Assembly (NCBI GenBank): GCA_965140585.1
Contig: OZ223268.1
Coordinates: forward strand, 133,221-197,220
DNA: 64,000 nucleotides
Source: Spirochaetia bacterium
GTDB taxonomy: Bacteria; Spirochaetota; Spirochaetia; UBA9216
Direction of reading: 5' to 3'
Shown here: piece after piece, positions 8,261 through 63,033 of the stretch
How positions within the stretch are numbered: position 1 is the first letter of the stretch
How the letters are laid out: the number at the start of each line of letters is the position of its first letter
Made by a program: the position numbers and the translations under genes
Notes under the pieces: model-generated
What the model saw: only the letters and a program-made list of their open reading frames with translations
Database searches by the model: none
Told to the model about the DNA's origin: nothing

Positions 8261-9289
8261 ATGACGGGAAAGGATATCAATTTTATCGATGAAGAACTTC
8301 TTGAAGCTGTAGTAGCTGCAGTGACTTCAGCAGTTGAAACCAATGAACCCGGGAAGCTTGGACATGGAAAAAGGGTGGCCCAATACTGTATGATGCTGGC
8401 CGATGCAGCAAATAAGGAAAACGGGGGTGCTTTCGGGGTGATCAGCTTTTCAAAAGAAGAGATGATTGAATTGAAGTATTCGGCTCTGCTTCATGATATC
8501 GGAAAAATAAATGTAAAGCCTCAAATTCTTCAGAAAAGCAGCAGGCTTTATCCCGGTGAAGTATCTGATATCAATATCAGGTTTGAATATATACTCCGAT
8601 ACCATGAGCTTCTTCTTTCTCAGCAGAAACTGCAGCTTGCGTATAATGAAAGTTTCATAAGGAGATCGGAGCTGCTTAAAGAAATTGAGCAGGATTTTCA
8701 GCTGACGGTGAAAAATCTTAAGAAGATGATGCAGAAAATCAGGGAATTGAATAACAGCGGAATTACCCCAAACAATGCAGAAAATCTGCATGAGATTGAG
8801 TTTCTCAGAGACCATGTATTTGCCAGGGATCTTAACGGTAAAAGAATTGACCTGATTACTGATTCACAGCTTGAATCTCTGCGTGTAAAACATGGGAATC
8901 TCACTGAATCTGAGAGGCTGCAGATTCAGGAGCATGTTAATCACGGTTATGAGATACTTCGAAAGATCCCCTGGCCGAAAGCACTTAAAAACATACCTGA
9001 AATAGTAAGAAACCACCATGAAAGGGCAGATGGAAGCAGATACCCCAACAGCAGAACTGCAGAAGCCATCCCCCTTCAATCTATGATAATCGCTGTAGCA
9101 GATGTTTTCGACGCTCTTACTGCTTCTGATGTACCATACCGGAAAGGACTGGACTCTGCCGATGCAGTATCAGTCCTGCGGCAGGAGGCAGAACTGAATA
9201 ATCTCGATGCTGATGTGGTTGATCTTTTCTGCCGTAGCTGTGTTCCGGCTTATGAGAAAATTGCAGAAGGAGCAATTACTCCTCAATAA
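8261..9289 (+). CDS. HD-GYP cyclic dinucleotide phosphodiesterase
   Basis: GHGKRVA, LLHDIGK, HHERADGSRYP, IAVADVFDALTA..PYRK. Confidence 0.85.
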   Translation: MTGKDINFIDEELLEAVVAAVTSAVETNEPGKLGHGKRVAQYCMMLADAANKENGGAFGVISFSKEEMIELKYSALLHDIGKINVKPQILQKSSRLYPGEVSDINIRFEYILRYHELLLSQQKLQLAYNESFIRRSELLKEIEQDFQLTVKNLKKMMQKIRELNNSGITPNNAENLHEIEFLRDHVFARDLNGKRIDLITDSQLESLRVKHGNLTESERLQIQEHVNHGYEILRKIPWPKALKNIPEIVRNHHERADGSRYPNSRTAEAIPLQSMIIAVADVFDALTASDVPYRKGLDSADAVSVLRQEAELNNLDADVVDLFCRSCVPAYEKIAEGAITPQ

Positions 9290-10505
9290 TATCGCAGCAG
9301 AGAATATAGGGTATATTGTTTCCATCAGAAAAAGGCAGGGCTATAGTTGTACAGAGGTGTCCTGAGTTCCTTGAAATGTATTTCTTTGTAGTATATTTAT
9401 GAAGCCCGGTGCTGAAGTGAAAGAAATAACTCTTGTAGGAATGATCAAACCCGGCAGACGAGGCATGAAAGAGCCTGCTCTTCGGGGAAAAGTCATCGCT
9501 GAAAACACAGTCGCCAACCTGAATACCGTTCTCATCAAGGATGTAGACACAGTCTATAACAGTCTGCCGGTTCACGGCATTTTGCAGGTATTTGTGAAAA
9601 CCATGATTTGGCATTGCTGACAGTTCAAGTATAAACTGGGACATGACCGTATCGTATCTTGTAAAATTAAGGTGACGGTTCTTAACCATCTGGAGGGTCC
9701 TGTTCCTGAATCCCGAAGCAACCGGCACAGCATCAGCGGCCTGAAGTACTGAAAGCTCCTCTGTTTCCTGAGGATGCAGGATAAGAAAGCCCTGAAGCAG
9801 GTCGGAACCGTATTCAAGCGAAGTTACGGCTTCATCTTCAGTTTCAACACCTTCGACTATGACCACAGCTCCAACCTGATGTGAAATCGAGTTTATCGCC
9901 TGAACTATTTCTTTCTTATAGATATCATTCTCAATGTTTCTTACCAGAGCACTGTCTATTTTAATAATATCCGGCTGAAGAATTACAACCCTCTCAAGAT
10001 TTGACAGTGTTTTTCCTGCGCCTGTGAGCGCTATTAGAAATCCGGATTTTTTGAAGGCATCAATCGAGTTTTTCAGAATCTCGATGCTGTTGACATCCGA
10101 CTCCAGGATTTCAAGTATTATTGAAGCGGGGCTTAAACCGGCTTTGATTGCCATATCAGTAATTTCTTCTGCCGAGGTATCTATACTTAATATAGTAGGC
10201 TCCAGGTTTACTGCAAGAAGCAGGTCATGATCATCTTTCTGAATCCTGCTAAAGCGTCCAAAAGCTTTTCTCAGGCAAAGCCTGTCAAGATCAGCTGCAG
10301 TTGTAGTTCTCCGGCCCATATAAAAAAGCAGTTCCGGATTGACCAGTTCTCTGTCGGAAGTCAAGCCACGACTTAAAGCTTCTACTATCACGGTTCTGTT
10401 CTCTGAACCTGAGACAATAGGCTGAAAACAGGTGATGACAGATTCATTCTCTAAAATCCAGTGATAGTCTTTTTCTGTGACATTCTGTAGCACTTTATAT
10501 TCCAT
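9276..10505 (-). CDS. EAL-domain protein with C-terminal YkuI-like domain, probably catalytically degenerate
   Basis: FQPIV, VEALSRG, LEILES, IIKID, VEGVET, LLQGF; DDFG replaced by LTGAG; C-terminal DHSYKSYF...YISRNSGHLCTTI. Confidence 0.8.
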   Translation of the reverse strand: MEYKVLQNVTEKDYHWILENESVITCFQPIVSGSENRTVIVEALSRGLTSDRELVNPELLFYMGRRTTTAADLDRLCLRKAFGRFSRIQKDDHDLLLAVNLEPTILSIDTSAEEITDMAIKAGLSPASIILEILESDVNSIEILKNSIDAFKKSGFLIALTGAGKTLSNLERVVILQPDIIKIDSALVRNIENDIYKKEIVQAINSISHQVGAVVIVEGVETEDEAVTSLEYGSDLLQGFLILHPQETEELSVLQAADAVPVASGFRNRTLQMVKNRHLNFTRYDTVMSQFILELSAMPNHGFHKYLQNAVNRQTVIDCVYILDENGIQVGDCVFSDDFSPKSRLFHASSAGFDHSYKSYFFHFSTGLHKYTTKKYISRNSGHLCTTIALPFSDGNNIPYILCCDIIEE

Positions 10506-10562
10506 ATCAGTTTATTCCTGTTCTATTAATCGGCCTGGGCTCATGTAAATTATAGGAAAAAA

Positions 10563-12200
10563 CTATCTCCTATTCAAATCAAGCGCATAATTTGCCGCAT
10601 GCTCAAATGTATCAATAAAATGTATTTTTTCTGTGGTTTCAGTTATACCGCTCCGGTTAAGTTCTCCAAGTACAGATTCATTAACGCCAGAAAAAATAAC
10701 TGTAACACCTGAGTGTCTAAGAACTCTTAAAACGCCCTTTATATTCATAAGTCCTGTCATATCAATAAATGGTACATGTCTCATCCTTATAATAAGTATA
10801 TGACAGTCACAGGCAATTGAACGGATATTCTCTGCATAATGCCTGGCCAGGCCGAAGAACATCGGTCCGCTAATCTCATAGACACAGATATCTTCAGGAA
10901 GGTCGGAATAGCTGTCTATTATATCTATGTCCACCTCCGAAGGAATCTTTCCGCTCATATCAGCCATTCTGCGCATAAACAGCATGGACGCAAGAACAAC
11001 TCCGACTTCGATTGCCATTGTCAAATCAACCAGTACAGTCAGAATAAATGTTACCAGAAGTATGAGGATATCCGAAGCGGCGCCTCTGAATACTGAGACA
11101 AAAGATCTCCATTCACTCATATTATATGCTACAACAATCAAAATACCGGCAAGCGTGGACATCGGAATTAATTTGGCAAATCGACCGAGAAAAAGCATAA
11201 TCATCAACAGAGTCAGAGAATGAATGATACCTGCAATCGGAGTTCGTCCCCCGTTTTTAACGTTGGTTGCTGTACGAGCAATTGCCCCGGTTGCCGGGAT
11301 GCCGCCGAAAAACGGTGCCACGATGTTGGCAATCCCCTGCGCTATCAGTTCAGTGTTGGAACGGTGATTACCGCTTATCATTCCGTCCGAAACAACAGCC
11401 GAAAGCAGCGACTCAATGCCTCCAAGCAGTGCGATTGTTATTGCGGGTTGAATATAACGGGTCAAATCTCCGGGACTGAAATGCGGCAGAATAAAGATCA
11501 TACCTGAGGGGATTTCGCCGAAAAACGATTCAATCGTGGTCACAGGAAGCCCGAACAGCTGTACAACCAGAGTTGTGACAACAAGAGCAAATATTGACCC
11601 CGGAACCTTTGAAGTCAGCTTCTTTGACAGCAGAACGATAAGTATGGTTACAGCCGTAATTATTAGCGCATAAGGATTTATTGTGTGAAGTTCTGAAATA
11701 TACAGCTTCCATTTTCCGATAAAATCAGCCGGAACAGATGCTATATCAAGGCCGAGTGCGTCCTTGATCTGTGTGGAGAATATCACAAGTGCTATTCCGC
11801 TTGTGAATCCGATTATCAGCGGCTGGGGTATGTATTTTAAAAGTGAACCGAATTTTATCAGTCCGAAAATTACCAGAAGGATCCCGGCCATTATAGTCGA
11901 AATCATAAGTCCTTCTATTCCGTATTCCATTGCAATTCCGTTCACAATTACAATGAAAGCACCGGTCGGACCGCCTATCTGGACCCGGCTGCCGCCGAGC
12001 AGTGATATTATAAATCCTGCAATAACAGCAGTAATAATTCCTTTTTCAGGAGAAACCCCGGAAGCAACGGCAAAGGCTATCGAAAGCGGCAGTGCAACTA
12101 TTCCGACAACTATGCCGGACATTATATCCGCACTAATCTGCTGTCTGCTTATTCCCGCTTTGAGAAGTGAAAACAATTTTGGTTTGAATATTTTTTCCAT
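10563..12200 (-). CDS. SulP family anion transporter with STAS domain
   Basis: VALPLSIAFA, GGPTGAF, ESLLSAVV, GAIARTATN, STAS (GPMFFG, FIDMTG). Confidence 0.92.
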   Translation of the reverse strand: MEKIFKPKLFSLLKAGISRQQISADIMSGIVVGIVALPLSIAFAVASGVSPEKGIITAVIAGFIISLLGGSRVQIGGPTGAFIVIVNGIAMEYGIEGLMISTIMAGILLVIFGLIKFGSLLKYIPQPLIIGFTSGIALVIFSTQIKDALGLDIASVPADFIGKWKLYISELHTINPYALIITAVTILIVLLSKKLTSKVPGSIFALVVTTLVVQLFGLPVTTIESFFGEIPSGMIFILPHFSPGDLTRYIQPAITIALLGGIESLLSAVVSDGMISGNHRSNTELIAQGIANIVAPFFGGIPATGAIARTATNVKNGGRTPIAGIIHSLTLLMIMLFLGRFAKLIPMSTLAGILIVVAYNMSEWRSFVSVFRGAASDILILLVTFILTVLVDLTMAIEVGVVLASMLFMRRMADMSGKIPSEVDIDIIDSYSDLPEDICVYEISGPMFFGLARHYAENIRSIACDCHILIIRMRHVPFIDMTGLMNIKGVLRVLRHSGVTVIFSGVNESVLGELNRSGITETTEKIHFIDTFEHAANYALDLNRR

Positions 12201-12267
12201 ATATCTCAGAGGATTACCCTATCTGAGAAACAAAATCAATCAGTTAGACTGATTTTTCGTCAGAATT

Positions 12268-13398
12268 TCAACTATCCTGCGAAACTACCATATTTCTGCC
12301 GTGAGTCTTAGCATAGTACAGCCTTACATCAGCAGATTTAAGAATTCCCTGAATTGTCCCGGCTTCCGAAAAAGCTGCAATACCGAAGCTAGCAGTCAGC
12401 TGATATTTACCGCAGAATCGGTGTTCTGCTATTATAGTCTTCAGTCTCTGGGCAAGCTGCTCAGTACTGTACAGCGGAGTTTCGGGACAGATAATGAGAA
12501 ACTCCTCACCGCCCCAGCGGCCGCAGACATCGACTTCCCTGATATGAGTACTAATTAATCCGGCAAATTCTACAAGAACCTTATCGCCCGTATCATGACC
12601 GTAGCTGTCATTAACATTCTTGAATAAGTCAATATCCATCAGTATTACACTGTATTCCTTGTTATACCGGATGGTCTTTCCAGTGACTTCTTTCAGCACA
12701 TCATCAAGTTTTCTTCTATTATACATTGCTGTAAGACTATCCCGGATTGACTGCTCAACAAGAACAGCATTGACAGCTTCTATCTCTTTTTTATGATGAA
12801 AGCCTCGCACAAAACTGCGGTAATTCAGACTGATAAGAATAAAAGCGATCATTCCGTTGGAGATAACATCTGCACTGTAGCTTGATAAAATGATCTCCGG
12901 ATGATAAACAGGAAGAAGGACCAGAGCCGCAACACTTACCGCTGCGTAGCAGACTAAACTCTGAATGTAATCGAGATAGAAAATTACCGCTATACCGTAG
13001 AGGGCAGCAATATATATTGTTGGAATCCGGCCAAGTTCCACTTCAATCAGAATAAACCGGTAAAGAGCTATACCCATACCGGATAGAATGAAAAGCTGAA
13101 CAAATATCTGTTTGGCAAAGATTTTATCTCTAAGCCCGGTTTTCATAAAAAGAATACTGAAAAGAACAAAAAGAGCCATCAAGAGTGCCGAATGTATATA
13201 GACGGTCTTCATCAAAGATGGAATATTGCTCACCCTGAATGCATAAAAAAACTGTTCTACTACCAGAAATATAGAAATTATAAGAATCCGGAACACATTA
13301 TTCTCAGACTGATACTTTCTGAATTCGTGCATTTCACTGGAACTTACAGGCTTCCCGAATATTCTGATTTTAAGTTTTACAAACGTTTCCATAAACAC
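12268..13398 (-). CDS. Membrane diguanylate cyclase
   Basis: About 6 TM segments; DSLTAMYNRR, DIDLFKNVNDSYGHDTGD, RWGGEEF with RxxD I-site. Confidence 0.9.
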   Translation of the reverse strand: MFMETFVKLKIRIFGKPVSSSEMHEFRKYQSENNVFRILIISIFLVVEQFFYAFRVSNIPSLMKTVYIHSALLMALFVLFSILFMKTGLRDKIFAKQIFVQLFILSGMGIALYRFILIEVELGRIPTIYIAALYGIAVIFYLDYIQSLVCYAAVSVAALVLLPVYHPEIILSSYSADVISNGMIAFILISLNYRSFVRGFHHKKEIEAVNAVLVEQSIRDSLTAMYNRRKLDDVLKEVTGKTIRYNKEYSVILMDIDLFKNVNDSYGHDTGDKVLVEFAGLISTHIREVDVCGRWGGEEFLIICPETPLYSTEQLAQRLKTIIAEHRFCGKYQLTASFGIAAFSEAGTIQGILKSADVRLYYAKTHGRNMVVSQDS

Positions 13399-13432
13399 TG
13401 CGGCACTATACTAAATCGATTAACCCAAAACT

Positions 13433-15004
13433 TCAATCGGTAAAATAGGCGATTGCATTTTTGCCCGATTTTTTTACCCTGTACATTGCAGTATCAGCTT
13501 CATGAAGAATCTGTTCGAGATTTTCATGATTGCCGCCTTCAACAATACTGATTCCGATGCTTGCTCCAATATTTATCTCATGCCCTTCGATTATCAGTTT
13601 CTCATCAATCGCATTAAGAATTTTTTTTGTTACAACATCGCATTCTTCTTCACTGGAGACACGAGGAAGAAGTACTATAAATTCGTCACCTCCGTATCTG
13701 CCTACAGTGTCTGAACTGCGCAGAACAGCCTTCATTTTAAGACCAACAGTCTGAAGTAGTGAATCTCCTACATCATGGCCGAACTGATCATTGACACTTT
13801 TAAATCCGTCAAGATCAATGAAGCAGACAGCCATTTTTAATTTATACCGGTCAGCAAGCTCCAGCTGCTTCGTAATTCTGTCGTATATAAGATTACGGTT
13901 CGGCAAATCCGTCAAATTATCATATAGGGCGGCATGCTCCATTGATTTACGGTATTTATTCCTCTGTATTATTATCCTGGATATAAGCAGAGCCCCGACA
14001 ATATCAAGAAATAAAATAATTATTGCAAGAATGGTATACCGGTATTGAAAATCTTTGAGTCCCAGTCCGAATTCCTTAGCTGTTATATAGTTAATAAGAA
14101 ACCAGGAATTTTCTGAGTTATAAATAAAATCAAGCTCCTCATACGGGTTTATCTTTAAAGCTGAAACCAGAACCCTATTTTTATAAACCTGATAAAAATC
14201 ATTATTCTGCATATACTCCCAGACTTGAGGACATTCAATGCTGAAAGAAACGGCCTCCCGATCGGGAAACATGAAACCCCATTCTTTATCAGGGTCATCA
14301 CGATAAAGCCAGTCACCGTTTTCATTAGCCAGAAAAAAACTGCCCGGATTATTCAGGGTCAGGTTTTCAAAAATATCAATTAAATTATGCCCCAGGAAAT
14401 TCAGTACAACAGCGCCCTTCACTTCACCCTCATTATAGACAGGACTTCCTATCCGAATCATAGGCTTTAAAGGTTTTTCAATCCTTTCGTTCTCTACATT
14501 CAAATCAAACAGTGAGATGTAAACCTGGCCTTCATGAAGTTTAACCGTCTCTGAAAAATAATACCTGTTAGATTTATCCTGCATCTGTTCTTCTGAAACA
14601 AGTACAGGCTTTCCATCAACCAGATTAACACGAACAATTTCCATTCCGGTTTGATCAATATATCGAACCTGATCAAAAACTCTCTTATTTTCGCTGAAAT
14701 TAAGCAGATCCTGCTGCAGATCATTTTTGCCAAGACCTGTTTCAATCATGTTGTGCAGTGACGATAAACCTGCCAGGAATTTCACATCGTATACAAGTTC
14801 CCTATAATAATTTGAAACAATTTCAGATTGGGCCTGAAGCAATCGTTCAGAATCAAGACTTTGTGTGTTTATATGCTCTGATCTATGCGAAATGATGAAG
14901 ATCGTATACAGGCCGAAACTTAATATTATCACTGCTGAAAGTGTTTTGACTGCTATACTTCCTGACGCTAAAGCTTCTTTAAAAATCATTTTATATTTGT
15001 GCAT
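13433..15004 (-). CDS. Cache-domain sensor diguanylate cyclase
   Basis: TM-Cache (QVRYID.GMEIVRVN, QDKSNRYYF, KPMIRIG)-TM-GGDEF (RYGGDEF). Confidence 0.9.
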   Translation of the reverse strand: MHKYKMIFKEALASGSIAVKTLSAVIILSFGLYTIFIISHRSEHINTQSLDSERLLQAQSEIVSNYYRELVYDVKFLAGLSSLHNMIETGLGKNDLQQDLLNFSENKRVFDQVRYIDQTGMEIVRVNLVDGKPVLVSEEQMQDKSNRYYFSETVKLHEGQVYISLFDLNVENERIEKPLKPMIRIGSPVYNEGEVKGAVVLNFLGHNLIDIFENLTLNNPGSFFLANENGDWLYRDDPDKEWGFMFPDREAVSFSIECPQVWEYMQNNDFYQVYKNRVLVSALKINPYEELDFIYNSENSWFLINYITAKEFGLGLKDFQYRYTILAIIILFLDIVGALLISRIIIQRNKYRKSMEHAALYDNLTDLPNRNLIYDRITKQLELADRYKLKMAVCFIDLDGFKSVNDQFGHDVGDSLLQTVGLKMKAVLRSSDTVGRYGGDEFIVLLPRVSSEEECDVVTKKILNAIDEKLIIEGHEINIGASIGISIVEGGNHENLEQILHEADTAMYRVKKSGKNAIAYFTD

Positions 15005-15059
15005 TTCTTTTTAATGATATAGATTTATCCTATTATATGCAAATTTCAGTCTTATGAAT

Positions 15060-15096
15060 AAAAAAAGGCTGTCCGGATATTACTCACGGACAGCCT
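15060..15096 (-). terminator. Intrinsic terminator of the malonate/decarboxylase operon
   Basis: AGGCTGTCCG/CGGACAGCCT stem followed by a U-run on the minus strand, 20 nt after the beta-subunit stop. Confidence 0.85.
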
Positions 15097-15116
15097 GAAT
15101 TGAAATCAGTTTAAAA

Positions 15117-16286
15117 CTAATTAAGCGACAACAGAACACCCGCAGCAATTGCAGAGCCTATAACTCCGGCTACGTTTGGTCCCATTGCGTTCATCAGCAG
15201 AAAGTTGCCCGGGTCTTCTTTCTGACCGACCTTCTGTACTACTCGTGCAGCCATAGGTACGGCAGATACTCCTGCAGCTCCAATCATCGGATTGATCTTT
15301 CCGCCGCTTATCTTGCTCATCAGCTTTCCAAGCATTACTCCGCCGCCGGTTCCTACTCCGAATGCTATACATCCAAGCACAATAATGAAGATTGTCTCAA
15401 ATGTAAGGAAGTGGTCGGCTGACATCTTCGAACCTACTGATATTCCAAGGAATATGGTAACTATGTTTATAAGCTCGTTCTGGGCTGTCTTTGAAAGCCT
15501 GTCTACAACTCCGCACTCCTTGAACAGGTTTCCAAGCATTAGCATTCCGATTAGAGGTGCTGATGCCGGAATAAGCAGGGCTGTAACTATTGTTGTGATT
15601 ATCGGGAAAAGAATCTTTGTCCGCTTTGATACGGGTTTCGGATCTTCCATCCTGATAAGTCTTTCCTTCTTGGTTGTGAGAGCCTTGATAATAGGCGGCT
15701 GTATAATCGGTACAAGCGCCATATACGTATAGGCTGCTACTGCAATAGGTCCAAGCAGATGCGGTGCAAGCTTCGATGTAAGATATATCGCTGTAGGACC
15801 GTCAGCTCCTCCGATTATTGCGATGGAAGAGGCCTCTGCGAAGTTGAAGCCCAGATCATGCGCCGCAAGAAAGGGTATTGCTCCAAGCGCCTTTGCTCCA
15901 AGCAGGGTTATAAATATACCAAGCTGTGCAGCGGCTCCAAGAAGAAAGGTCTGCGGCTTGCCCAGTAGCGGTCCAAAGTCCGTCATCGCACCAATTCCCA
16001 TGAAGATAATCGGCGGAAACAGTCCAAGCTGAACACCCTGGTAAAAATAGTATATAAGTCCGCCGGCCTGGTCTCCGATTGGGCCTTCCAGAAGCCCTGT
16101 AAGCGGAAGGTTTACCAGTATTGCTCCAAACCCTATCGGGATAAGCAGCAGCGGCTCATAACCCTTTGCTATTGCAAGGTAAACAAGCAGACAGCCGATT
16201 GCAATCATCACAATGTTCTGCCAGGTGATTGCTGTGAAGGCGGTGCTGCTTAGAAATCTCAATATTAGATCTACGAAATTCACCAA
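15117..16286 (-). CDS. mmdB: Na+-translocating decarboxylase beta subunit (OadB/MmdB family)
   Basis: [63 protein letters not shown]. Confidence 0.93.
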
Positions 16287-16295
16287 ATCCCTCCG

Positions 16296-16781
16296 TTAGC
16301 CGATGTCTACAAGCGGCTGTCCTTCGGTTACGTTTGTACCCGGAGTTACATGGATGGCTGCTACTGTACCGGCATTGCTTGCAAATACTTCAATGTCCAT
16401 CTTCATTGCTTCCATTATCAGTAGAAGATCTCCCTTGGCTACACTTGCACCCTGGGCTACCTTGATTTCCTTGATTGTTCCTGTGATTGCAGCCTTCTCA
16501 GTTCCGGCTCCGGCTGCTACAGGGGCGGCGGCTGGTGCAGGCGCGGCAGCTGCGGGAGCGGGGGCGGCAGCTGCCGGTGCTGGTGCGGCCGGTGCAGCAG
16601 CTGCAGCAGGGGCTGCAGGCGCAGCGGCCGGTGCAGCAGGAGCTGCTGTTGCTCCTGCAGGGGTTGCAAGGCTTACAAGGTAACTATCGCCTTCATGCTC
16701 AATTGTAAGGACATTTCCGTTTCTTGTTACGTTTATGTCGTAAAGTGTTCCTTCATATTCAAACTTAATATTCTTGCTCAT
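16296..16781 (-). CDS. mmdC: Biotin carboxyl carrier subunit of Na+-pumping decarboxylase
   Basis: Ala/Pro linker and EAMKM biotinylation motif. Confidence 0.9.
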   Translation of the reverse strand: MSKNIKFEYEGTLYDINVTRNGNVLTIEHEGDSYLVSLATPAGATAAPAAPAAAPAAPAAAAAPAAPAPAAAAPAPAAAAPAPAAAPVAAGAGTEKAAITGTIKEIKVAQGASVAKGDLLLIMEAMKMDIEVFASNAGTVAAIHVTPGTNVTEGQPLVDIG

Positions 16782-16786
16782 AACTC

Positions 16787-17173
16787 TTATACTCCTGGTG
16801 CTTTTCTTGTAATTTTATTGCTAGCGACCCACGGGTCATACTTTGCTGCTCCCGCTGAGCTCCATCCTGAAGCCTTCGGGGCATTCTGCTCATCTTCCTC
16901 TGCTGCCAGAAACGCTGATACCGCAGCCGAAAGCCATTTGGCGTTGTCGGCCATTGTTGCTGTAGCTGCTGCAACTATTACAGGCAGGGGCAGACCGCCG
17001 CTCTTCTTTGCTGAAGAAGCCCTGGCAGATTTCGGCGCTGTGCTTTTGGCTGTATCACCGTCTGCGAATTTCCTTATCAGAACCATCAGCAGACTCAGAA
17101 GGACTAACAGCGTAAATACTATCAGTATTCCAAGTATGGATGTCATAACACTGTAAATAAATTCTTCCTGCAT
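16787..17173 (-). CDS. mmdD: OadG/MmdD-family anchoring subunit
   Basis: Single N-terminal TM (GILIVFTLLVLL), AAVSA and C-terminal W..AG motifs, position in operon. Confidence 0.75.
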   Translation of the reverse strand: MQEEFIYSVMTSILGILIVFTLLVLLSLLMVLIRKFADGDTAKSTAPKSARASSAKKSGGLPLPVIVAAATATMADNAKWLSAAVSAFLAAEEDEQNAPKASGWSSAGAAKYDPWVASNKITRKAPGV

Positions 17174-17188
17174 AAAACTCTCCGCCTC

Positions 17189-18739
17189 CTACAGTGGTAT
17201 ATTGCCGTGTTTCTTGGCAGGTCTGTCTTCACGCTTTTTGATGTTGATCTCAAGCGCTCTGATGAGTTCTGCACGGGTGTATTCGGGATCGATTATATCG
17301 TCTACAAGACCAAGTCCTGCGGCTACGTAGGGGTTCATGAACTCTGTCTGGAACTCTGCTATCTTTTCCTGTCTCTTTGCTTCAGGATCCGATGCTGAAC
17401 TGATGTCCTTTCGAAAGATGATGTTTGCTGCACCCTCTGCTCCCATTACTGCTATTTCTGCTGTCGGGTAGGCAAGGACTCTGTCGTATCCAAGTGACTT
17501 GGAGGACATTGCTATCATTGAACCGCCGTAGGATTTTCTCATAATCAGCGAAATCTTGGGCACTGTTGCCTCTGCTATTGCGTAGAGGATCTTTGCTCCG
17601 TGCCTGATGATTCCACCGTGCTCCTGGGCAACGCCTGGAAGGTAGCCGGGAACGTCAACGAGTGTGATTACCGGAATATTGAAAGCATCGCAGAAGCGAA
17701 TGAATCTTGCTCCCTTGTCTGATGAGTTGATATCAAGTGATGCAGCCATGAACTTCGGCTGGTTGGCAAAGATTCCTACAGTGCGTCCGTTTAGCTTTGC
17801 GAAACCTACTACTACGCTTTTGGCGAAGTCTTCCTGTACTTCAAGAAATGAACCTGCGTCGAAGGCGCTTCCGATTATATCGCGTACATCGTAGGGCTTT
17901 CTGGGCTCTTCGGGGATGATCGACATTATTTCGGGGGTGGTTCTCTCAAGTGAATCTGTACATGCGCTTACTGGCGGCTGCTCTGTGTTATTTGACGGCA
18001 GGTAGTCCATAAGCCTTCTGATGAAATCAAAACATTCCTGCTCGGATGAAAAACGGAAGTGGGCGACTCCGCTTTTTGCACAGTGAGCTGATGCTCCACC
18101 GAGGTCTTCGTGGCTGATAACCTCACCGGTTACTGTCTTGATTACATCCGGACCGGTGATGTACATGTGACTTGAACCGTCTACCATGAATATGAAGTCG
18201 GTTATGGCCGGTGAGTAAACTGCACCTCCGGCACAGGGACCGAGTATTACTGAAAACTGAGGAATTACACCTGATGAGAGTGTGTTGTTCCGAAAGATTT
18301 TGGCGTATCCGTTTAGTGAGAGTATTCCCTCCTGGATTCTTGCTCCGCCTGAATCGTTGACCTGGATAAACGGTGAGCCGTTTTTGAGTGCAAGACTTTG
18401 GGCCTCTGCAATCTTTTCGGCATGCATTTCTCCAAGTGAACCGCCGAGAACTGTAAAATCCTGAGCTGACAGGAATACCTGCTTGCCGTTCATCTTGCCT
18501 GTTCCGGTTACTACTCCGTCGCCGGCAAACTTGTTTTTATCCATTCCGAACTGGCTTGTTCTTGTCTGGATGTATGCCTGGCTTTCAACGAAACTTCCCT
18601 CATCCAGAAGTCCGGTGATCCTTTCTCTGGCGGTAAATTTCCCTTTATCATGCTGGGCTTTGATTCTGGCGTCGCCGCCGCCCTTCTGCATTTTTGCTCT
18701 GAAGTCTTTAAACTCCTGAAGCCGCTCGTTGTTATTCAT
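17189..18739 (-). CDS. mmdA: Acyl-CoA carboxyltransferase, (methyl)malonyl-CoA decarboxylase alpha subunit
   Basis: GDGVVTG, QDFTVLGGSLG, DSGGARIQEG, GPCAGGAVYSPA, DVPGYLPG, KKHGNIPL. Confidence 0.88.
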   Translation of the reverse strand: MNNNERLQEFKDFRAKMQKGGGDARIKAQHDKGKFTARERITGLLDEGSFVESQAYIQTRTSQFGMDKNKFAGDGVVTGTGKMNGKQVFLSAQDFTVLGGSLGEMHAEKIAEAQSLALKNGSPFIQVNDSGGARIQEGILSLNGYAKIFRNNTLSSGVIPQFSVILGPCAGGAVYSPAITDFIFMVDGSSHMYITGPDVIKTVTGEVISHEDLGGASAHCAKSGVAHFRFSSEQECFDFIRRLMDYLPSNNTEQPPVSACTDSLERTTPEIMSIIPEEPRKPYDVRDIIGSAFDAGSFLEVQEDFAKSVVVGFAKLNGRTVGIFANQPKFMAASLDINSSDKGARFIRFCDAFNIPVITLVDVPGYLPGVAQEHGGIIRHGAKILYAIAEATVPKISLIMRKSYGGSMIAMSSKSLGYDRVLAYPTAEIAVMGAEGAANIIFRKDISSASDPEAKRQEKIAEFQTEFMNPYVAAGLGLVDDIIDPEYTRAELIRALEINIKKREDRPAKKHGNIPL

Positions 18740-18856
18740 TCTAAGCTCCTGAATTTCTCAAAAAAATTGTGAAAGAATGTAATTTAATTCTTAATACTCA
18801 CATTATCCGTAATATAGATTCCGGATAATCAGATTTCCATTTATATACTAAACTTA

Positions 18857-19618
18857 CTAGAAAATGGCGTTAACTATCAGATATCCTACTGAAGGACAAA
18901 GAAGTGTTCCAAGTCCTGTATAGAAAGTTGCAGTCATTGCACCGTAGGGAACAAGCTTGATATCAGTAGCCGCAAGTCCGCCTGCAACACCACTGGTTGT
19001 TCCGATAATTCCGCCGTATACCATTGCTGTAGTCGGGTTATCAAGACCGATCTTCTTGGCAATAAGCGGGGTCATGATCATCGTCAGTACAGACTTAACA
19101 ACACCTGCCGCAACAGACAGGGCTACAACCGACGAGCTTACGCCTAGGGCATCACCTGTTACCGGTCCTACAATAAAAGTAACTGTACCTGCACCGATTG
19201 TTGTTAGTTCTTTGGGGTCAACAAAACCCAGTATACGGGCAATTATAACTCCGACAACGAATGAAAAAATAACACCGATGAAAAGAGCTACAACACCTGC
19301 AAGCCCTGCTTTCTTGAGATTCTCCATCTTAACACCATATGCTGTTGATACAATGGTGTAGTCTCTGAGGGCACTTCCTCCAAGTATGAGAAAACCTGCA
19401 AAAAGAGGCAGATCAGCAAGACCTTTTTTTCCGCCGGTGAATTTACCAGCAACATATGCAAGAATAAGGGCAAGTATGATTGCAAAAGCAGATCCCATCT
19501 TTCCCTGTTTGATCATTTTTGCTACATAGTAAGCAAGAAGCATCGCAAGAGCGACAAAACCGAAAGCGAGGACAAGGTGATCACGTCCCATGATACTGTT
19601 CATTATTTTTGCAATCAT
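18857..19618 (-). CDS. madM: Malonate transporter subunit MadM
   Basis: GSAFAI, TGGKKGLAD, GGSALRDYTIVST, GAGTVTFIVGPVTG, GTTSGVAGGLAATD.KLVPYGAMTATFYTGLG. Confidence 0.92.
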   Translation of the reverse strand: MIAKIMNSIMGRDHLVLAFGFVALAMLLAYYVAKMIKQGKMGSAFAIILALILAYVAGKFTGGKKGLADLPLFAGFLILGGSALRDYTIVSTAYGVKMENLKKAGLAGVVALFIGVIFSFVVGVIIARILGFVDPKELTTIGAGTVTFIVGPVTGDALGVSSSVVALSVAAGVVKSVLTMIMTPLIAKKIGLDNPTTAMVYGGIIGTTSGVAGGLAATDIKLVPYGAMTATFYTGLGTLLCPSVGYLIVNAIF

Positions 19619-19992
19619 ACTTCTTCTCCTTTATCTTTACCAAGCTTGGCTACTAATGGTACAAGAAACAGTGAAGCTATAGTTGCAATGCCTCCGGCCA
19701 GAAATGCAACCGCACCGCCGTCAACTGCAGCTACAACATTCTGGGATGCTGCCATAGCAACAACAACCGGAATGTAGATAGAACTCAGAAAAAGTATTCC
19801 GTTTTCAGTTTTTGCACTGAAACCGCCCTTTTTTGATTTTTGAACTCTTGCAGTAACAATAACCAGAAGAAGCATTGCTATACCTACACCGCCGACATTA
19901 CCCCCGATGCCGATTACCGCACCAAGAATTCTGCCGATGAAATTTCCGACAAAGTAACAGGCTGCTACTATTCCAAGGCCGTATATTTCCAT
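19615..19992 (-). CDS. madL: Malonate transporter subunit MadL
   Basis: MEIYG, NVGGVGIAMLLL, YIPVVVAMAASQNVVAA; overlaps madM start. Confidence 0.92.
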   Translation of the reverse strand: MEIYGLGIVAACYFVGNFIGRILGAVIGIGGNVGGVGIAMLLLVIVTARVQKSKKGGFSAKTENGILFLSSIYIPVVVAMAASQNVVAAVDGGAVAFLAGGIATIASLFLVPLVAKLGKDKGEEV

Positions 19993-20031
19993 ATCCTTTT
20001 CTCCTTAAACTTAAATTTGGTTTTAATAGTT

Positions 20032-21255
20032 TTATTTTTTGTCGAAGACAACTCCGCTGTTCAGCAGTTCTTCAACTTTTTCTTTTGAATATCCGAGTTC
20101 ATTCTGCAGATATTCAATTGTGTGCTCCCCAAGTCCGGGAGCCGGTGTTCTGACTGTACCGGGAGTTTCCGTCATTTTAAACGGAGATCCGGCCATAGTT
20201 ACTTTACCAACTCCGGGCTGTTCAACATCAACTATCATTTCGCGGTAAAGCAGGTTCGGGTCTTTTACAACCTTATCAATTGTGTTCAATGGTGAATACG
20301 GCAGGCCGTTTTCATCAAGAAGCTTGATCCATTCTTCGGATGTCTTCTTTTTCATTTCAACATCCAGAATTCTGACCAGTTCATCTCGGTTCTGTGTTCT
20401 GAGAGGATTAGTTTTGAAAAGTTCATGATCAGTCAGATCTTCTCTTTCAATAAGTGTACAGAATTTCTTCCAGAGAGAATCATTACCGATAGGTGTTATA
20501 ACCCAGCTGCCGTCACTTGTTTCAAATGCCTGAAACGGAGTTATGGTCGGGTGAGCACTTCCGAGAGGTACGGGAATTTCACCTTTGGCAGTGTATCTGA
20601 CAATTGCATTCTCAAGAATGTACACGAGACCATCTACCATAGAAATATCTATATGCTGTCCTTCGCCGGTTCGGTTTTTATGCTGCAGAGCTGCAAGAAT
20701 GCCGATCGCACCCTGATGTCCTGCAACTACATCACCTACAGACGAGCCTACGCGTACCGGAGCTCCGCCGAGGGGGCCTGTGATACTCATCAAACCGCTG
20801 AATCCCTGTGCAACCATGTCGTATGCCGGACGGGTTGCATACTCGGGAAGAGCATCATGTCCGAATCCGCAGATTGAGCAATAAATAATTCCGGGATTTA
20901 TTTTTTTTAATTCTTCATATGAGAAACCAAGTTTTCTCATGGTTGTCGGACGGTAGTTTTCAACTACGATATCCGCATCCTTAATCATGTCTGTCAGTAG
21001 AGCCTTACCTTCATCTTTTTTAAGGTCAACACAAATACTCTTTTTATTTCTGTTGATACTGATGAAATATCCGCTCTGCTTTCCGTTGCCGTCCTGTTCA
21101 TCAAGGAAGGGTCCGAATGCCCTTGAATCATCACCAATAGGGGGTTCAACTTTTACAACTTCAGCCCCCATATCTGCCAGAATCATCGTGCAGAACGGTG
21201 CAGCAAGTACATGACTAAGATCGACTATTTTAATTCCTTCCAATGCCTTTTTCAT
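20032..21255 (-). CDS. Family III (CaiB/BaiF) CoA-transferase, candidate malonate CoA-transferase
   Basis: DLSHVLAAPFC, NRNKKS, VENYRP, SVGD catalytic Asp, APGLGEHT; first gene upstream of madLM. Confidence 0.9.
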   Translation of the reverse strand: MKKALEGIKIVDLSHVLAAPFCTMILADMGAEVVKVEPPIGDDSRAFGPFLDEQDGNGKQSGYFISINRNKKSICVDLKKDEGKALLTDMIKDADIVVENYRPTTMRKLGFSYEELKKINPGIIYCSICGFGHDALPEYATRPAYDMVAQGFSGLMSITGPLGGAPVRVGSSVGDVVAGHQGAIGILAALQHKNRTGEGQHIDISMVDGLVYILENAIVRYTAKGEIPVPLGSAHPTITPFQAFETSDGSWVITPIGNDSLWKKFCTLIEREDLTDHELFKTNPLRTQNRDELVRILDVEMKKKTSEEWIKLLDENGLPYSPLNTIDKVVKDPNLLYREMIVDVEQPGVGKVTMAGSPFKMTETPGTVRTPAPGLGEHTIEYLQNELGYSKEKVEELLNSGVVFDKK

Positions 21256-21376
21256 AAAGGCCTCCTGTGATTTTTGTTTTCACAAAATCACTTGATCACT
21301 AATAAATTGAATTAAACACACTCTTTCACAATGTTATTTTCTTGATACCTCCAGGGGCTCTCTTTTCTTTATGAGC

Positions 21377-21411
21377 AAAAAAAAAGAGAAGTATTCTGAC
21401 ACTACTTCTCT
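21377..21411 (-). terminator. Leader intrinsic terminator between hutP and the CoA-transferase (attenuator)
   Basis: Sense AGAGAAGTA-GTGTCAGAA-TACTTCTCT followed by 8 more T; two UAG triplets overlap its 5' arm. Confidence 0.8.
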
Positions 21412-21480
21412 AATACACGCGTTAATAAAATTTCACTACAGGGACTGAACACTAATACACACTAAATTTTTTCAGTCCTG
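21402..21480 (-). promoter_or_regulatory. Putative HutP-binding RNA element (UAG repeats plus upstream hairpin)
   Basis: Five UAG at 21462, 21452, 21436, 21410, 21402 (four as UAGUG); repeated GUGUAUUAG; hairpin CAGGACTGAA/TTCAGTCCCTG with two UAG in its loop. Confidence 0.6.
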
Positions 21481-21498
21481 TTTATACACAAATAAAAA

Positions 21499-21921
21499 TT
21501 ATTTTAAATGCATAACCCCAAGCGCACACCGCTCATGGTTTGTTATTGGATAGAAGGCGGAATCACCGTAAATCGCAACGGCAACCCATTCCTCATTTGT
21601 TACAATGCCCACCTTAAGTTTCAGGCTGGCCTCTGCCGGAACACTGCTGATAACACCGTTAAGCGCTTCAAGAGCAGCATGAAGAACAGCATGAACCTGC
21701 GTTCCGTTTTTTTTGATCAATCCATTCTGAAGCGAACAACCGACGATTGATTTTACAAAACTCTTCTTGATATCGGAGGTCAGACCGGTAATAAAAGTCA
21801 CCGCAAGTTTTTCCTTTCCGATAGTGTTATTGACTTCAGCCTTAATCTGGCGCTCTTCTTCTTCATCAGACATAGCAGCAAGAAGTGCCATTTTTCCAAT
21901 ACGATCTGTATTCAGCTTCAT
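21499..21921 (-). CDS. hutP: HutP-family RNA-binding antiterminator
   Basis: RIGKMALL, HAVLHAALEALNGV, EWVAVAIYG, HERCALGVMHL parallel B. subtilis HutP (RIGRLSVL, HALYHATMEALHGV, DWIAVSLYG, HETFGVGINHI); three metal-binding His kept. Confidence 0.88.
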   Translation of the reverse strand: MKLNTDRIGKMALLAAMSDEEEERQIKAEVNNTIGKEKLAVTFITGLTSDIKKSFVKSIVGCSLQNGLIKKNGTQVHAVLHAALEALNGVISSVPAEASLKLKVGIVTNEEWVAVAIYGDSAFYPITNHERCALGVMHLK

Positions 21922-21929
21922 GTTTAGTC

Positions 21930-21959
21930 ATACTACACTCGGAAATGCACAATTGTCAA
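21930..21959 (-). promoter_or_regulatory. Sigma-70-type promoter of hutP, probably leaderless transcript
   Basis: TTGACA-18 bp-TAGTAT, then 8 nt to ATG; no SD. Confidence 0.55.
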
Positions 21960-22027: not shown

Positions 22028-24217
22028 TCAGGGTTGAAATCGACCTGGAATCCTAATACGAAAAACAGTCCCCTGCCCCGGTTCCGAATCGACTGCAATA
22101 TATCCATCGAGTGTATCAATAATATTTTTCACAATTGCAAGACCAAGCCCCATTCCGCGATGTATTTTAGTATAAATATTTTCAAGTTGCTGGAAAGGCT
22201 GAAAAATAAGCGGAAGATCCTCCTTCTTAATTCCGGGCCCTTCATCCGCTATTTCAAGAATCAGCTCATCAGCCGATTCTATTATGCTGCAGGTAATCTT
22301 TCCATTCTCTGAATATTTTATTGCATTTGTAATAAGGTTGTTTACTATCTGAGCAATACGGGTTTCATCACCGTAGAAAAAACCTGATTTATATTTTTTG
22401 CAAGCCGACAGGTGAAGATCCTTTTTTTCCAGAGAATCACTGAATATTTCAGAAGCAAGCATACCGATATTATTCAGTTTGAAAACCTGTTTACTGATAG
22501 AAATTTTACCAATGCTGAACTGGGTAAAATTCAAAAGATCCTCAATTATTGTTTTTAGATTATCGGTAGAAACAAGGGCAAGATTGTACCACTCTTGTTC
22601 TTCTGTATTAAAAGAAACTCCTGCCAGAAGCCTTAGCATGCCGTAGACTCCGTTAAGCGGAGTCCGCAGTTCATGACTGATATTTGCAAGAAAATCATTT
22701 TTTACCCGAAGTGCTGTTTCAGCCTTGATTCTTGCGTGTTCTATCTGTTCTGAAATTTTGATTTTTTCAGTTACATCATGTATGATTGCATAAAGATATT
22801 CATGGCTGCCGGCATTCAGACGCCCGCTGAATAACTCTATATGCCGGGTATCTCTTTTTGCAAGCTTGATCCTCATTGTTTTGCCTGATAATTCATCAAA
22901 CTTAAAAAAACCTTCTTCAATATTTTCTTCATCGGCAAGCAGATTGTAAAGTGAGAGATTTTTCAGTGCATTTTCAGGATAACCAAGATAATCCACAGCA
23001 GCCTGATTCAAATCAATTATTCTGCTTGTAACCGGTTCGAATAAAATAATGACTGATGTGTTATCATAAAAAAGGCTTCTGTATTTTAATTCACTTAAAC
23101 GAAGTGCAGATTCAGCCTTTTTCCTGATATTAATATTTATAAGTGAAAACAGAAGTAAAACTGCCATTATACTGAAAATGCTCACCGAACTCAGCACCAG
23201 AGCCTTATTTTCCCTGAGAAAACTGTATGGTCTGTTGATGATTTCAGAATCTTCCGGAAGCTTCCTCAAACTGATTCCAAAGCGTTTCAGTTCCTGATAA
23301 TCAAATATGTAGTGATTATCAGCATCACTCCGGATAGGAATTGAAGCCGGAGATGCACCATCAAGTATTTTTAGAGCAGTTTCTGCGGCACTGATTGCCT
23401 GCTCATAGTGACTAATCACCCTTCCTCCGAAAACACCATCACCGAAACCGTGATACCATAGATGAAAAAGCGGTATTTTAAGATTCTCATAAATTATCTT
23501 CAAACTCTCATTAAAAAGAAGATTATTTCCTTCACTGTCCTGATAGGCAGAAAGCAGAAGTAAACTAGTATCCCGTCCTAAACCGGAGAGAATTGCTGCA
23601 AATTCCTGCCATGTATAATCTTTAAGAGATATTGTTCTGAACTCATATGAAGGAAATTGGTTTTGAAGCTCATTAAAAGCCCTTAAATCAGCAGCTCCGC
23701 TGGTTGTTGCATCGGAAATGGCCGTAATTGTTTCAGTCTGGGGAAAAAGAGAAATCATCAATTCTATAGTATCTTTCATCGATACGGCTTCAATCAGCCC
23801 TGTTACCATCGGGTCATTATTATAACTCAGAGCTTTCTTAATATCATTGACCCCGAAAAAAACTATCGGAACATCGTTAAAAAACTCATTCCGCATACTC
23901 ATACATAAATCAAGCGCATTATCATCTGCAGTTATTACCAAATCATATTCAGGAACATGCTGAAACTTGTAGATAAAAAATTCCCTTCTAAGCTTTATTA
24001 CCTCATCAGTATTAAACCGTTTTGAATCCAGAAATTCCATATCCAGAAGAACATGTTCTTCATCAAGCACTGAACGCAATCCGTCAATCTGATGATTGAA
24101 AGTCGGAAACGAAGGGTTATATGAGCTGATAAATAAAATTCTTTTAAAATGATCATGTGTATAGGCAGGTAGACCAGTAACCAGCATAATCAGAATCAGG
24201 ACACACTTACGGAACAT
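22028..24217 (-). CDS. Sensor histidine kinase (ABC substrate-binding-like periplasmic domain, PAS, HisKA, HATPase)
   Basis: ISSYNP...EFLDSKRF, FLANISHELRTPL, NLITNAIKY, DEGPGI, GMGLGL. Confidence 0.9.
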   Translation of the reverse strand: MFRKCVLILIMLVTGLPAYTHDHFKRILFISSYNPSFPTFNHQIDGLRSVLDEEHVLLDMEFLDSKRFNTDEVIKLRREFFIYKFQHVPEYDLVITADDNALDLCMSMRNEFFNDVPIVFFGVNDIKKALSYNNDPMVTGLIEAVSMKDTIELMISLFPQTETITAISDATTSGAADLRAFNELQNQFPSYEFRTISLKDYTWQEFAAILSGLGRDTSLLLLSAYQDSEGNNLLFNESLKIIYENLKIPLFHLWYHGFGDGVFGGRVISHYEQAISAAETALKILDGASPASIPIRSDADNHYIFDYQELKRFGISLRKLPEDSEIINRPYSFLRENKALVLSSVSIFSIMAVLLLFSLININIRKKAESALRLSELKYRSLFYDNTSVIILFEPVTSRIIDLNQAAVDYLGYPENALKNLSLYNLLADEENIEEGFFKFDELSGKTMRIKLAKRDTRHIELFSGRLNAGSHEYLYAIIHDVTEKIKISEQIEHARIKAETALRVKNDFLANISHELRTPLNGVYGMLRLLAGVSFNTEEQEWYNLALVSTDNLKTIIEDLLNFTQFSIGKISISKQVFKLNNIGMLASEIFSDSLEKKDLHLSACKKYKSGFFYGDETRIAQIVNNLITNAIKYSENGKITCSIIESADELILEIADEGPGIKKEDLPLIFQPFQQLENIYTKIHRGMGLGLAIVKNIIDTLDGYIAVDSEPGQGTVFRIRIPGRFQP

Positions 24218-55014: not shown

Positions 55015-55016
55015 AT

Positions 55017-56228: not shown

Positions 56229-56252
56229 TCTTCTCTCCTTTGATTTACCTGA

Positions 56253-57557: not shown

Positions 57558-57558
57558 C

Positions 57559-59973: not shown

Positions 59974-60070
59974 TAGTACCCGCATTTTGATGTTAGCGCA
60001 GTAAAAAATACTGTGTTAGCATACCCATAAAGGCTGATTAATAATTTCACAAACTAAAAAAGGAGGAACA

Positions 60071-61857: not shown

Positions 61858-61881
61858 TTATAATTTCAAAGGAGAGAAAGG

Positions 61882-62976: not shown

Positions 62977-62984
62977 TTCCCCCG

Positions 62985-63010
62985 GTCAGCCGGTTATCTG
63001 GCTGACTTTC
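62985..63010 (+). terminator. Hairpin after dctP (weak terminator or mRNA stabiliser)
   Basis: GTCAGCCGG-TTAT-CTGGCTGAC then TTTC. Confidence 0.5.
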
Positions 63011-63033
63011 AATTTCACAATAAGGAACTGCAT

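Follow-up and report, generated by a model that had tools for sequence, protein, structure and literature searches.

The Mad system of Malonomonas rubra draws its energy from the conversion of malonate to acetate and CO2 (PMC8085960, excerpt), and the Mdc enzymes of Klebsiella and Pseudomonas are described as soluble, based on an acyl carrier protein (ACP), free of biotin and without ion pumping (PMC5534430, excerpt). Here we describe an operon of a Spirochaetia bacterium that probably degrades malonate with another set of parts, importing it together with Na+, activating it in an acetyl-CoA:malonate CoA-transferase step, passing its carboxyl group to biotin and releasing CO2 through a Na+-pumping decarboxylase. 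The operon lies in a 64-kb stretch of DNA (G000:C5:133221-197220; 'the window' below) of a genome of 4.85 Mb in 10 contigs that is 98.49% complete (G000). All inferences made here come from comparative genomics, i.e. from gene content, gene order and sequence comparison.

Degradation of malonate through CoA esters is known from other bacteria. Sporomusa malonica reportedly degrades malonate via malonyl-CoA (enzyme assays of Dehning and Schink, 1994), and it resembles the case proposed here in that CoA is transferred to malonate and malonyl-CoA is then decarboxylated, in an anaerobe living on malonate decarboxylation; we know of no genes assigned to its pathway. The matABC genes of Rhizobium (malonyl-CoA synthetase, soluble malonyl-CoA decarboxylase and carrier) also provide a CoA-based, ACP-independent route from malonate to acetyl-CoA, but this route spends ATP on activation and conserves no energy at decarboxylation; MCD (PF05292) was matched in none of nine genomes, and no control genome matched either. 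The pathway is less new than an earlier annotation of the same DNA, made from the letters alone (the sequence-only reading), had implied, since malonate degradation via malonyl-CoA was reportedly described in 1994: CoA-dependent malonate degradation was already known, and what is new is the genetic variant. S. malonica grows on malonate (PMC8085960, excerpt), and malonate CoA-transferase (EC 2.8.3.3) is listed without a KEGG function number (PMC8307300, excerpt). No description of the operon was found in the literature searched, most subscription journals lying outside that search. If our reading is right, the operon provides genes for malonate CoA-transferase and for the CoA-dependent, membrane-energised malonate fermentation known from the 1994 enzyme assays.

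Gene content of the operon and the predicted pathway

Gene families were assigned by comparing Pfam and NCBIfam profile scores with curated cut-offs. Seven open reading frames (ORFs) are tightly packed on the minus strand between 15117 and 21255, and every member of the co-oriented run listed by the sequence-only reading was recovered with its family, the OadG-type subunit only weakly. The first gene (20032..21255, minus strand as for all genes of the operon) encodes a family III CoA-transferase of 407 amino acids, the proposed acetyl-CoA:malonate CoA-transferase, which matches PF02515 with 427.7 bits over the full length of the profile (positions 1-366 of 366). Its nearest solved structures are human SUGCT (9br6, 301.5 bits) and Escherichia coli YfdE (4hl6, 273.5 bits), the latter presumably an acetyl-CoA:oxalate CoA-transferase; both align over the full length, belong to the same fold family, have the conserved Asp and act on dicarboxylates. 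D175 of the window transferase aligns with this Asp in SUGCT, YfdE and a formyl-CoA transferase, and it sits in a V-R-x-G-x-x-x-x-D motif common to the window transferase, SUGCT and YfdE; it corresponds by motif, with the numbering unchecked, to Asp212, the catalytic residue of SUGCT (PMC10871334, excerpt). The window transferase is unlike SUGCT and YfdE in its gene context (MadLM and a decarboxylase) and in scoring far below their equivalog cut-offs, as it does for all named NCBIfam equivalogs of family III (succinyl-CoA:mesaconate, 355.5 versus 700; succinate-glutarate, 343.2 versus 750; CoA:oxalate, 301.6 versus 522; formyl-CoA transferase, 268.3 versus 504). Judged by these scores it is a family III member that fits no named equivalog.

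The transferase gene is followed by genes for the predicted small malonate-transporter subunit MadL (19615..19992; PF03817, 139.7; TIGR00807, 127.4 with a cut-off of 113.45) and the predicted large malonate/Na+ symporter subunit MadM (18857..19618; PF03818, 333.2; TIGR00808, 307.8 with a cut-off of 236.3), which are adjacent, overlap by 4 nt and both score above the equivalog cut-offs. A spacer of 117 nt, with no strong terminator and with a ribosome-binding site at its end, leads to the gene for an MmdA-type carboxyltransferase of 516 amino acids (17189..18739; PF01039, 633.7 bits). The PDB entries nearest to this protein are 1vrg (675 bits) and 1x0u; among solved structures its closest relatives comprise beta subunits of propionyl-CoA carboxylase and one putative alpha subunit of methylmalonyl-CoA decarboxylase. 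Next come a candidate OadG/MmdD-like small membrane anchor of 128 amino acids with an N-terminal hydrophobic helix (16787..17173) and a biotin carboxyl carrier protein (BCCP) of 161 amino acids (16296..16781; PF00364, 59.5), with an Ala/Pro linker and an EAMKM biotinylation motif near its C-terminus. Rfam gave two sub-threshold matches, both within the part of the carrier gene that codes for Ala and Pro, which we attribute to chance.

The last gene encodes the predicted beta subunit of a Na+-translocating decarboxylase (15117..16286; PF03977, 539.2; TIGR01109, 520.9 with a cut-off of 190.6). It scores 408 bits against the OadB structure 6iva, and residues D203, Y229, N373, G377, S382 and R389 of 6iva, which we take to act in the ion path and at the decarboxylation site, are all conserved. 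Behind its stop codon lies the terminator claimed by the sequence-only reading (15060..15096, minus strand), a hairpin with a G+C-rich stem of 10 bp followed by a T-run. The consensus terminator scan handles loops of up to 8 nt; this terminator and the one in the leader (see below) have longer loops and were read from the sequence instead.

From these parts a closed cycle can be proposed. MadLM would import malonate together with Na+, and the family III CoA-transferase would convert it to malonyl-CoA, with acetyl-CoA as the proposed donor and acetate released. The MmdA-type carboxyltransferase would then move the free carboxyl group of malonyl-CoA to the biotin of the carrier, regenerating acetyl-CoA, and the beta subunit, held with the OadG-like anchor, would decarboxylate carboxybiotin and pump Na+ out. 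The net reaction would be malonate + H+ to acetate + CO2, with a Na+ gradient conserved. Acetyl-CoA is assigned as CoA donor because the cycle needs it to close; we infer likewise malonate as the substrate, Na+ as the coupling ion and the effector of the HutP-like regulator treated in the last section.

The operon shares parts with each of the described systems. With the Mad system it shares MadLM for uptake, the biotin carrier, a carboxyltransferase and, as beta subunit, a predicted Na+ pump of the OadB type, but Mad activates malonate on an ACP through MadA and prosthetic-group enzymes, and the window has a family III CoA-transferase instead. Its carboxyltransferase is a single MmdA-type protein, only 28% identical over 196 amino acids to the Mad-type carboxyltransferase-like region of another genome (G498), and its beta subunit is 32% identical to the Mad-type beta subunit of that genome. 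With the Mdc systems of Klebsiella and Pseudomonas, some of whose loci have MadLM-type carriers, it would have the substrate and the net reaction in common, but MdcA, ACP and CitG were not found in the window's genome. Its pump subunits correspond to those of the methylmalonyl-CoA decarboxylase (Mmd) of Veillonella and Propionigenium, i.e. an MmdA-type carboxyltransferase, a small anchor (here a candidate), a biotin carrier and a beta subunit; the Veillonella enzyme also accepts malonyl-CoA. Unlike Mmd, the pump in the window appears to be tied to malonate uptake and CoA transfer, and its MmdA falls below the TIGR01117 cut-off. The two-step biotin mechanism has been described (PMC8473912, excerpt). 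By gene content the operon falls outside Mad (no MadA, ACP or CitG), though it would be Mad-like in its working, and we assign its pump to the Oad/Mmd/Gcd class.

Exchange with the ACP machinery and conservation of the gene order

The absence of MadA/MdcA, ACP and CitG that the sequence-only reading had noted at the locus extends to the whole genome. Profile searches of the 98.49% complete assembly gave only a 19.5-bit match to MdcA/MadA (PF16957), below the cut-off of 25.4, and no match to the malonate ACP (PF06857) or to CitG/MdcB (PF01874), MdcG/CitX not having been searched; no mdcA or ACP gene over cut-off was found elsewhere in the genome. The PF16957 model does detect Mad-type loci, with 958 and 955 bits in G402 and G498. 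A transferase adjoins MadLM in 12 of the 14 genomes with MadLM (G000, G001-G004, G442, G454, G492, G602, G688, G714 and G740), and MdcA is over cut-off in none of these 12, which is the combination of madLM with a CaiB-type transferase and without mdcA that the sequence-only reading had proposed to search for. Both genomes that have MadLM without an adjacent transferase (G402 and G498) do have MdcA, in G498 as part of a Mad-type cluster whose contig also carries MadM. To judge from their gene content, these genomes use the MadLM-linked transferase and the ACP machinery as replacements for each other around the MadLM carrier. The sampled genomes are partly related and not independent, and several loci are on short contigs.

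This exchange bears on whether the same machinery could instead serve methylmalonate, giving propionate, or a broader range of short dicarboxylates, with malonate at best a side substrate. We regard that as unlikely. In its favour, the best NCBIfam model for the carboxyltransferase is TIGR01117 (mmdA), and the solved proteins nearest to it act on propionyl-CoA or putatively on methylmalonyl-CoA. SUGCT-type transferases are promiscuous for diacids (PMC10871334, excerpt), the close relatives of the window transferase are found in varied contexts, and the ancestral pump locus described below could equally process methylmalonate semialdehyde derived from thymine or valine. Against this, MadL and MadM pass the cut-offs of malonate-transporter equivalogs, the linked transferase and the malonate-specific MdcA replace each other across 14 genomes, and a malonate locus of the MdcA type also has a HutP-like regulator. 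Moreover, methylmalonyl-CoA mutase (PF01642) has no match in the genome (the same search matches 8 of 14 control genomes) and the best score for the epimerase (TIGR03081) is 42.2 with a cut-off of 114.95. With no mutase and no epimerase over cut-off, there is no link to propionate metabolism, and the pump should not be part of a succinate-to-propionate route, which excludes the classical role of Mmd. Malonate decarboxylation that is CoA-based and ACP-independent, as the sequence-only reading had it, is supported in silico by the lack of mdcA, ACP and citG, by the exclusivity of MdcA and by the association seen from the side of MadM.

MadM was surveyed in two samples of 401 genomes each, one from the window's own phylum and one from the phylum (Bacillota-type) of an Acidaminobacter metagenome-assembled genome (MAG). 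Nine genomes of the Bacillota-type sample have MadM; a CoA-transferase lies directly upstream in eight of the nine loci, and MmdA directly downstream in five of those eight, the contig ending inside mmdA in four of the five. Around MadM in these sampled genomes the CoA-based form (eight out of nine loci) is commoner than the ACP-based one. The genomes G002, G454 and G492 have no adjacent pump, and MmdA-BCCP-beta is found elsewhere in them. The Acidaminobacter MAG (L008) keeps the full seven-gene order.

A purely accidental arrangement, in which a recent duplication put the pump behind an unrelated pair of CoA-transferase and transporter without functional coupling, is highly improbable, even though the pump block is a recent duplicate with 97.9% identity and the two closest relatives of the transferase (in G492 and Halanaerobium) have no adjacent pump. 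The order CoA-transferase-MadL-MadM-MmdA recurs in distant lineages (L008, G442, and G602/G688/G714, a group with near-identical transferases on the tree), a congeneric genome retains the arrangement, and within the operon the 117-nt spacer between madM and mmdA, with its ribosome-binding site and no strong terminator, speaks for coupling.

The picture is different when the transferase is taken as the starting point. Among 25 loci of a transferase-centred scan of genomes MadLM is adjacent in four (L005, L006, L008 and L027: a same-species MAG, Halanaerobium congolense, the Acidaminobacter MAG and Neobacillus) and MmdA in three; among 80 loci of the corresponding metagenome scan MadLM is adjacent in none and MmdA in six, one of these only at 31-34% identity. 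The gene association put forward by the sequence-only reading is conserved, then, when viewed from MadM (eight out of nine, then five out of eight) and gives a mixed picture when viewed from the transferase (four out of 25 genome loci, none out of 80 metagenome loci). The transferase tree was built from 51 of 116 rows, i.e. all 38 with at least 44.4% identity and 13 others, 65 being left out; the label 'MadLM-adjacent' needs five changes on it, and 106 of 500 shuffles gave a number as low.

Several observations weigh against the proposed pathway. Firstly, 16 metagenome loci have a transferase 53-66% identical to that of the window, and none of them has MadLM and one has a pump (five of these contigs are shorter than 2.5 kb); the neighbours of 11 close relatives are diverse, including an amidase, a TRAP subunit, Cas1, an MFS carrier, aminotransferases and AFOR, among others; and the MadLM-adjacent transferases do not form one clade, at least three origins being forced by the starred branches of the tree. 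Secondly, the carboxyltransferase scores 781.7 with TIGR01117, below the cut-off of 998.8, and the sequence data do not separate specificity for malonyl-CoA from that for methylmalonyl-CoA. Thirdly, SUGCT, a close solved relative of the transferase, uses succinyl-CoA with C4-C5 diacids, with malonate a weaker competitor than succinate or glutarate (PMC10871334, excerpt), and the specificity of MadLM is experimentally known only for the Malonomonas proteins (PMC8085960, excerpt). Fourthly, the OadG-like gene is a weak, sub-threshold match (PF04277, 26.1 versus 27; TIGR01195, 29.8 versus 36.05), its position and helix fitting the assignment; its positional counterpart in L008 is above the TIGR01195 cut-off (46.2). 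Finally, as the genome has FabD and FabF but no biotin carboxylase that could be found (see below), malonyl-CoA may also be needed for biosynthesis.

Since no metagenome locus out of 80 links the transferase to MadLM, its neighbours are diverse and at least three origins are needed, the transferase clade is not a dedicated malonate family, and we no longer regard all of its members as malonate enzymes. Two loci appear to swap parts while keeping the logic of the pathway. In Neobacillus, whose genome lacks OAD_beta, a crotonase-family gene separates the transferase gene from MadLM; E. coli YgfG, a member of the crotonase family, is a methylmalonyl-CoA decarboxylase. In a Peptococcaceae MAG (L007), MmdA is followed by a TRAP transporter, in place of MadLM, and then by two transferases. 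A metagenome locus (L047:6941-13650) has a 63%-identical transferase followed by an amidase-signature protein (PF01425, 521.9 bits), MmdA, anchor, BCCP and beta subunit; one may speculate that the amidase feeds an amide such as malonamate to the same kind of pump.

Origin of the pump and a possible malonyl-CoA node

The pump genes of the operon have a close copy in the same genome. A block at 15055..18718 (unstranded), reaching from about codon 8 of mmdA through the beta gene and the terminator, is 97.9% identical in nucleotides over 3673 aligned bases to G000:C6:677725-681344 (blastn). A genome of the same genus (G001/G806) has both pump copies on a single contig, and three out of three genomes of the same family that belong to another genus (L177-L179) have a single beta gene in the context of the C6 copy. 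Because the beta gene is single-copy and in the same context in these three, we take the C6 copy as the ancestral pump locus, resident in the family, and the pump part of the operon as a duplicate of it that is specific to the genus.

The conserved ancestral context consists of a LysM peptidase, beta-BCCP-anchor-MmdA, two small ORFs, an NCS2 permease and, divergently, a SauS-like dehydrogenase and a class III aminotransferase. The dehydrogenase is a CoA-acylating aldehyde dehydrogenase closest to the sulfoacetaldehyde dehydrogenase SauS (553.6 bits, cut-off 600), and PreA (598 bits, cut-off 335) with a GltD-like partner is encoded within ~10 kb of the C6 pump. Malonate semialdehyde being the carboxylate counterpart of sulfoacetaldehyde, the locus can most simply be read as converting beta-alanine to malonate semialdehyde and on to malonyl-CoA, which would enter the pump. 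The C6 locus looks like an energy-conserving route of this kind from beta-alanine or pyrimidines, and on this simplest reading its context is a further indication of malonyl-CoA, independent of the first. In known Pyd clusters the last enzyme is instead a reductase or dehydrogenase of malonic semialdehyde (PMC7332683, excerpt). The C6 locus (L004, L030) is also near a Na+/solute symporter and an IS1595 transposase, and its two small conserved ORFs (126 and 146 amino acids) belong to no known family, their Atlas matches being only to 'hypothetical protein'.

The upstream part of the operon seems to have another history. MadM is found in only two of the 401 genomes sampled from the window's own phylum. 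The closest relatives of the transferase are those of G492 (70% identity) and Halanaerobium (65%), which form a supported clade with it (98*), and both occur in a three-gene module of CoA-transferase, MadL and MadM without an adjacent pump. We infer that the hutP/CoA-transferase/madLM part is foreign to the spirochaete family and came to lie next to a new copy of the pump already resident there. In G442, G602 and G740, contigs break inside mmdA or the beta gene (L141-L144, L152-L157) and fragments of beta genes lie at several contig ends, which suggests multi-copy pump modules in these genomes, too. If all this is true, one Na+-pump module has been copied and attached to different feeders that converge on malonyl-CoA. 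For engineering, the transferase with MadLM would be a three-gene, ATP-free module from malonate to malonyl-CoA that could replace MatB-based polyketide supply; malonyl-CoA supply based on MatB is used in polyketide work, according to published abstracts.

A different use of malonyl-CoA has to be weighed here, namely that the operon is mainly biosynthetic: malonate would be scavenged for type II fatty-acid synthesis, and the pump would dispose of the excess or run backwards, carboxylating acetyl-CoA. Reversal of the Mmd and Oad pumps in vitro was reportedly achieved by Dimroth and Hilpert in 1984. Biotin carboxylase (Biotin_carb_C, PF02785) was not found in the genome by a search that matches 13 of 14 control genomes, and it is present in only one of eight genomes of the same family (G806-G814), in none of the four high-quality ones; the genome has no Carboxyl_trans genes other than the two copies of mmdA; and FabD (172.8 bits to 3hjv) and FabF (480 bits to 4ls5) are encoded at ~210-213 kb of C6. 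These findings would suit a biosynthetic role, which we nevertheless hold to be quite improbable. A decarboxylase that is predicted to be co-transcribed with the enzyme forming malonyl-CoA argues for catabolic flux, and the rarity of MadM (two out of 401 genomes across the phylum) in spite of a family generally without biotin carboxylase argues that scavenging is not the family's general solution. The absence of acetyl-CoA carboxylase itself comes from searches in which AccA (PF03255) was not searched on its own.

Malonate fermentation by the operon could be part of a wider scheme, which we put forward tentatively as possible but rather unlikely. The Mmd-type pump and its feeders (malonate with the CoA-transferase; beta-alanine or pyrimidines with the aminotransferase and the SauS-like dehydrogenase) would be the only malonyl-CoA node of this bacterium, lipid synthesis would obtain its malonyl-CoA from scavenged C3 compounds or by reversal of the pump as a Na+-driven acetyl-CoA carboxylase, and the HutP switch would sense malonate rather than histidine.

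The HutP-like gene, its leader RNA and the neighbouring genes

The operon extends further upstream than the seven genes of the sequence-only reading. A gene for a candidate HutP-family RNA-binding antiterminator of 140 amino acids (21499..21921, minus strand; PF09021, 108.7 with a cut-off of 25) precedes the transferase gene, and just upstream of it, at 21930..21959 on the same strand, is a sigma-70-like promoter (TTGACA, a spacer of 18 nt, TAGTAT), which matches the consensus at 10 of 12 positions and has the top score in the scanned region, a consensus match only. The gene is single-copy in the genome (tblastn) and has relatives beside other malonate loci. With the HutP equivalog NF002838 the protein scores 40.6, below the cut-off of 155, and we class it by these profiles as a member of the family and not as a hut equivalog.

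Between this gene and the transferase gene lies a leader RNA of 243 nt (21256..21498, minus strand) with five UAGUG, one UAGAG and an intrinsic terminator. The first bases of the UAGUG pentamers are at 21464, 21454, 21438, 21404 and 21301, irregularly spaced. Five of the 27 minus-strand TAGTG of the 64 kb fall in these 245 nt (Poisson probability of at least five per 245-nt segment, 4e-8), and outside this cluster no segment of that length exceeds two such pentamers on either strand. The terminator (21377..21411, minus strand) has a 9-bp stem (AGAGAAGUA / UACUUCUCU) with a loop of 9 nt, followed by eight consecutive U; one UAGUG and the UAGAG overlap its 5' arm and loop. It is part of the minimum free energy fold of the leader, whose fold z-score is only -1.54, and a comparison of the leader with Rfam gave no family match.

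In the Bacillus hut operon hutP comes first, followed by a terminator and then the enzymes, and the HutP protein of B. subtilis, once it carries histidine and Mg2+, binds to UAG triplets. The window has the same order of promoter, hutP-like first gene, terminator and structural genes, with UAG-containing repeats before and in the terminator, but the repeats are UAGUG and irregularly spaced, and the downstream genes would serve malonate, not histidine. Because a hutP-like gene, a leader and a terminator ahead of the enzymes make up the layout of hut, we count the unit as eight genes plus a regulatory leader. The promoter would drive the HutP-family protein, which, with its effector (proposed to be malonate), would bind the UAGUG cluster and prevent the terminator at 21377-21411 from forming.

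Of 13 distinct MadLM loci, six adjoin a HutP-like gene, the MdcA-type locus of G498 among them, and one further HutP-like gene neighbours a transferase of 66% identity on a short contig from a metagenome. Terminator-like hairpins were read after the hutP-like gene in L139, L141 and L146. A regulator common to both types of operon fits a shared inducer, which would be malonate, and suggests HutP-type antitermination with a non-histidine effector at malonate loci. No link between HutP and malonate was found in the literature searched, again with subscription journals mostly outside the search; if the link is true, it adds a second ligand class for HutP-type antiterminators. The HutP subfamily recurs at the window and at L062, L139, L141, L142, L143 and L146, i.e. 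at malonate loci of the CoA-transferase type and of the MdcA type.

Two further family III CoA-transferase paralogues are encoded within the window. One of them (55017-56228) adjoins two genes for HGD-D (2-hydroxyacyl-CoA dehydratase component D) and an unknown ORF of 358 amino acids, in a region (53938-58725) that is probably a 2-hydroxyacid fermentation module. The other runs off the contig end behind a LysR regulator and a TRAP transporter (DctQ, DctM and DctP) at 58966-63999, by its gene content another predicted module for uptake and activation of an organic acid. The flanks of the malonate operon (8261-15004 and 22028-24217) hold genes for cyclic di-GMP signalling, i.e. two GGDEF proteins (one with a Cache-type sensor), an EAL protein and HD-GYP-like proteins, together with a DauA-like SulP transporter and a histidine kinase with an ABC-substrate-binding-like sensor domain.

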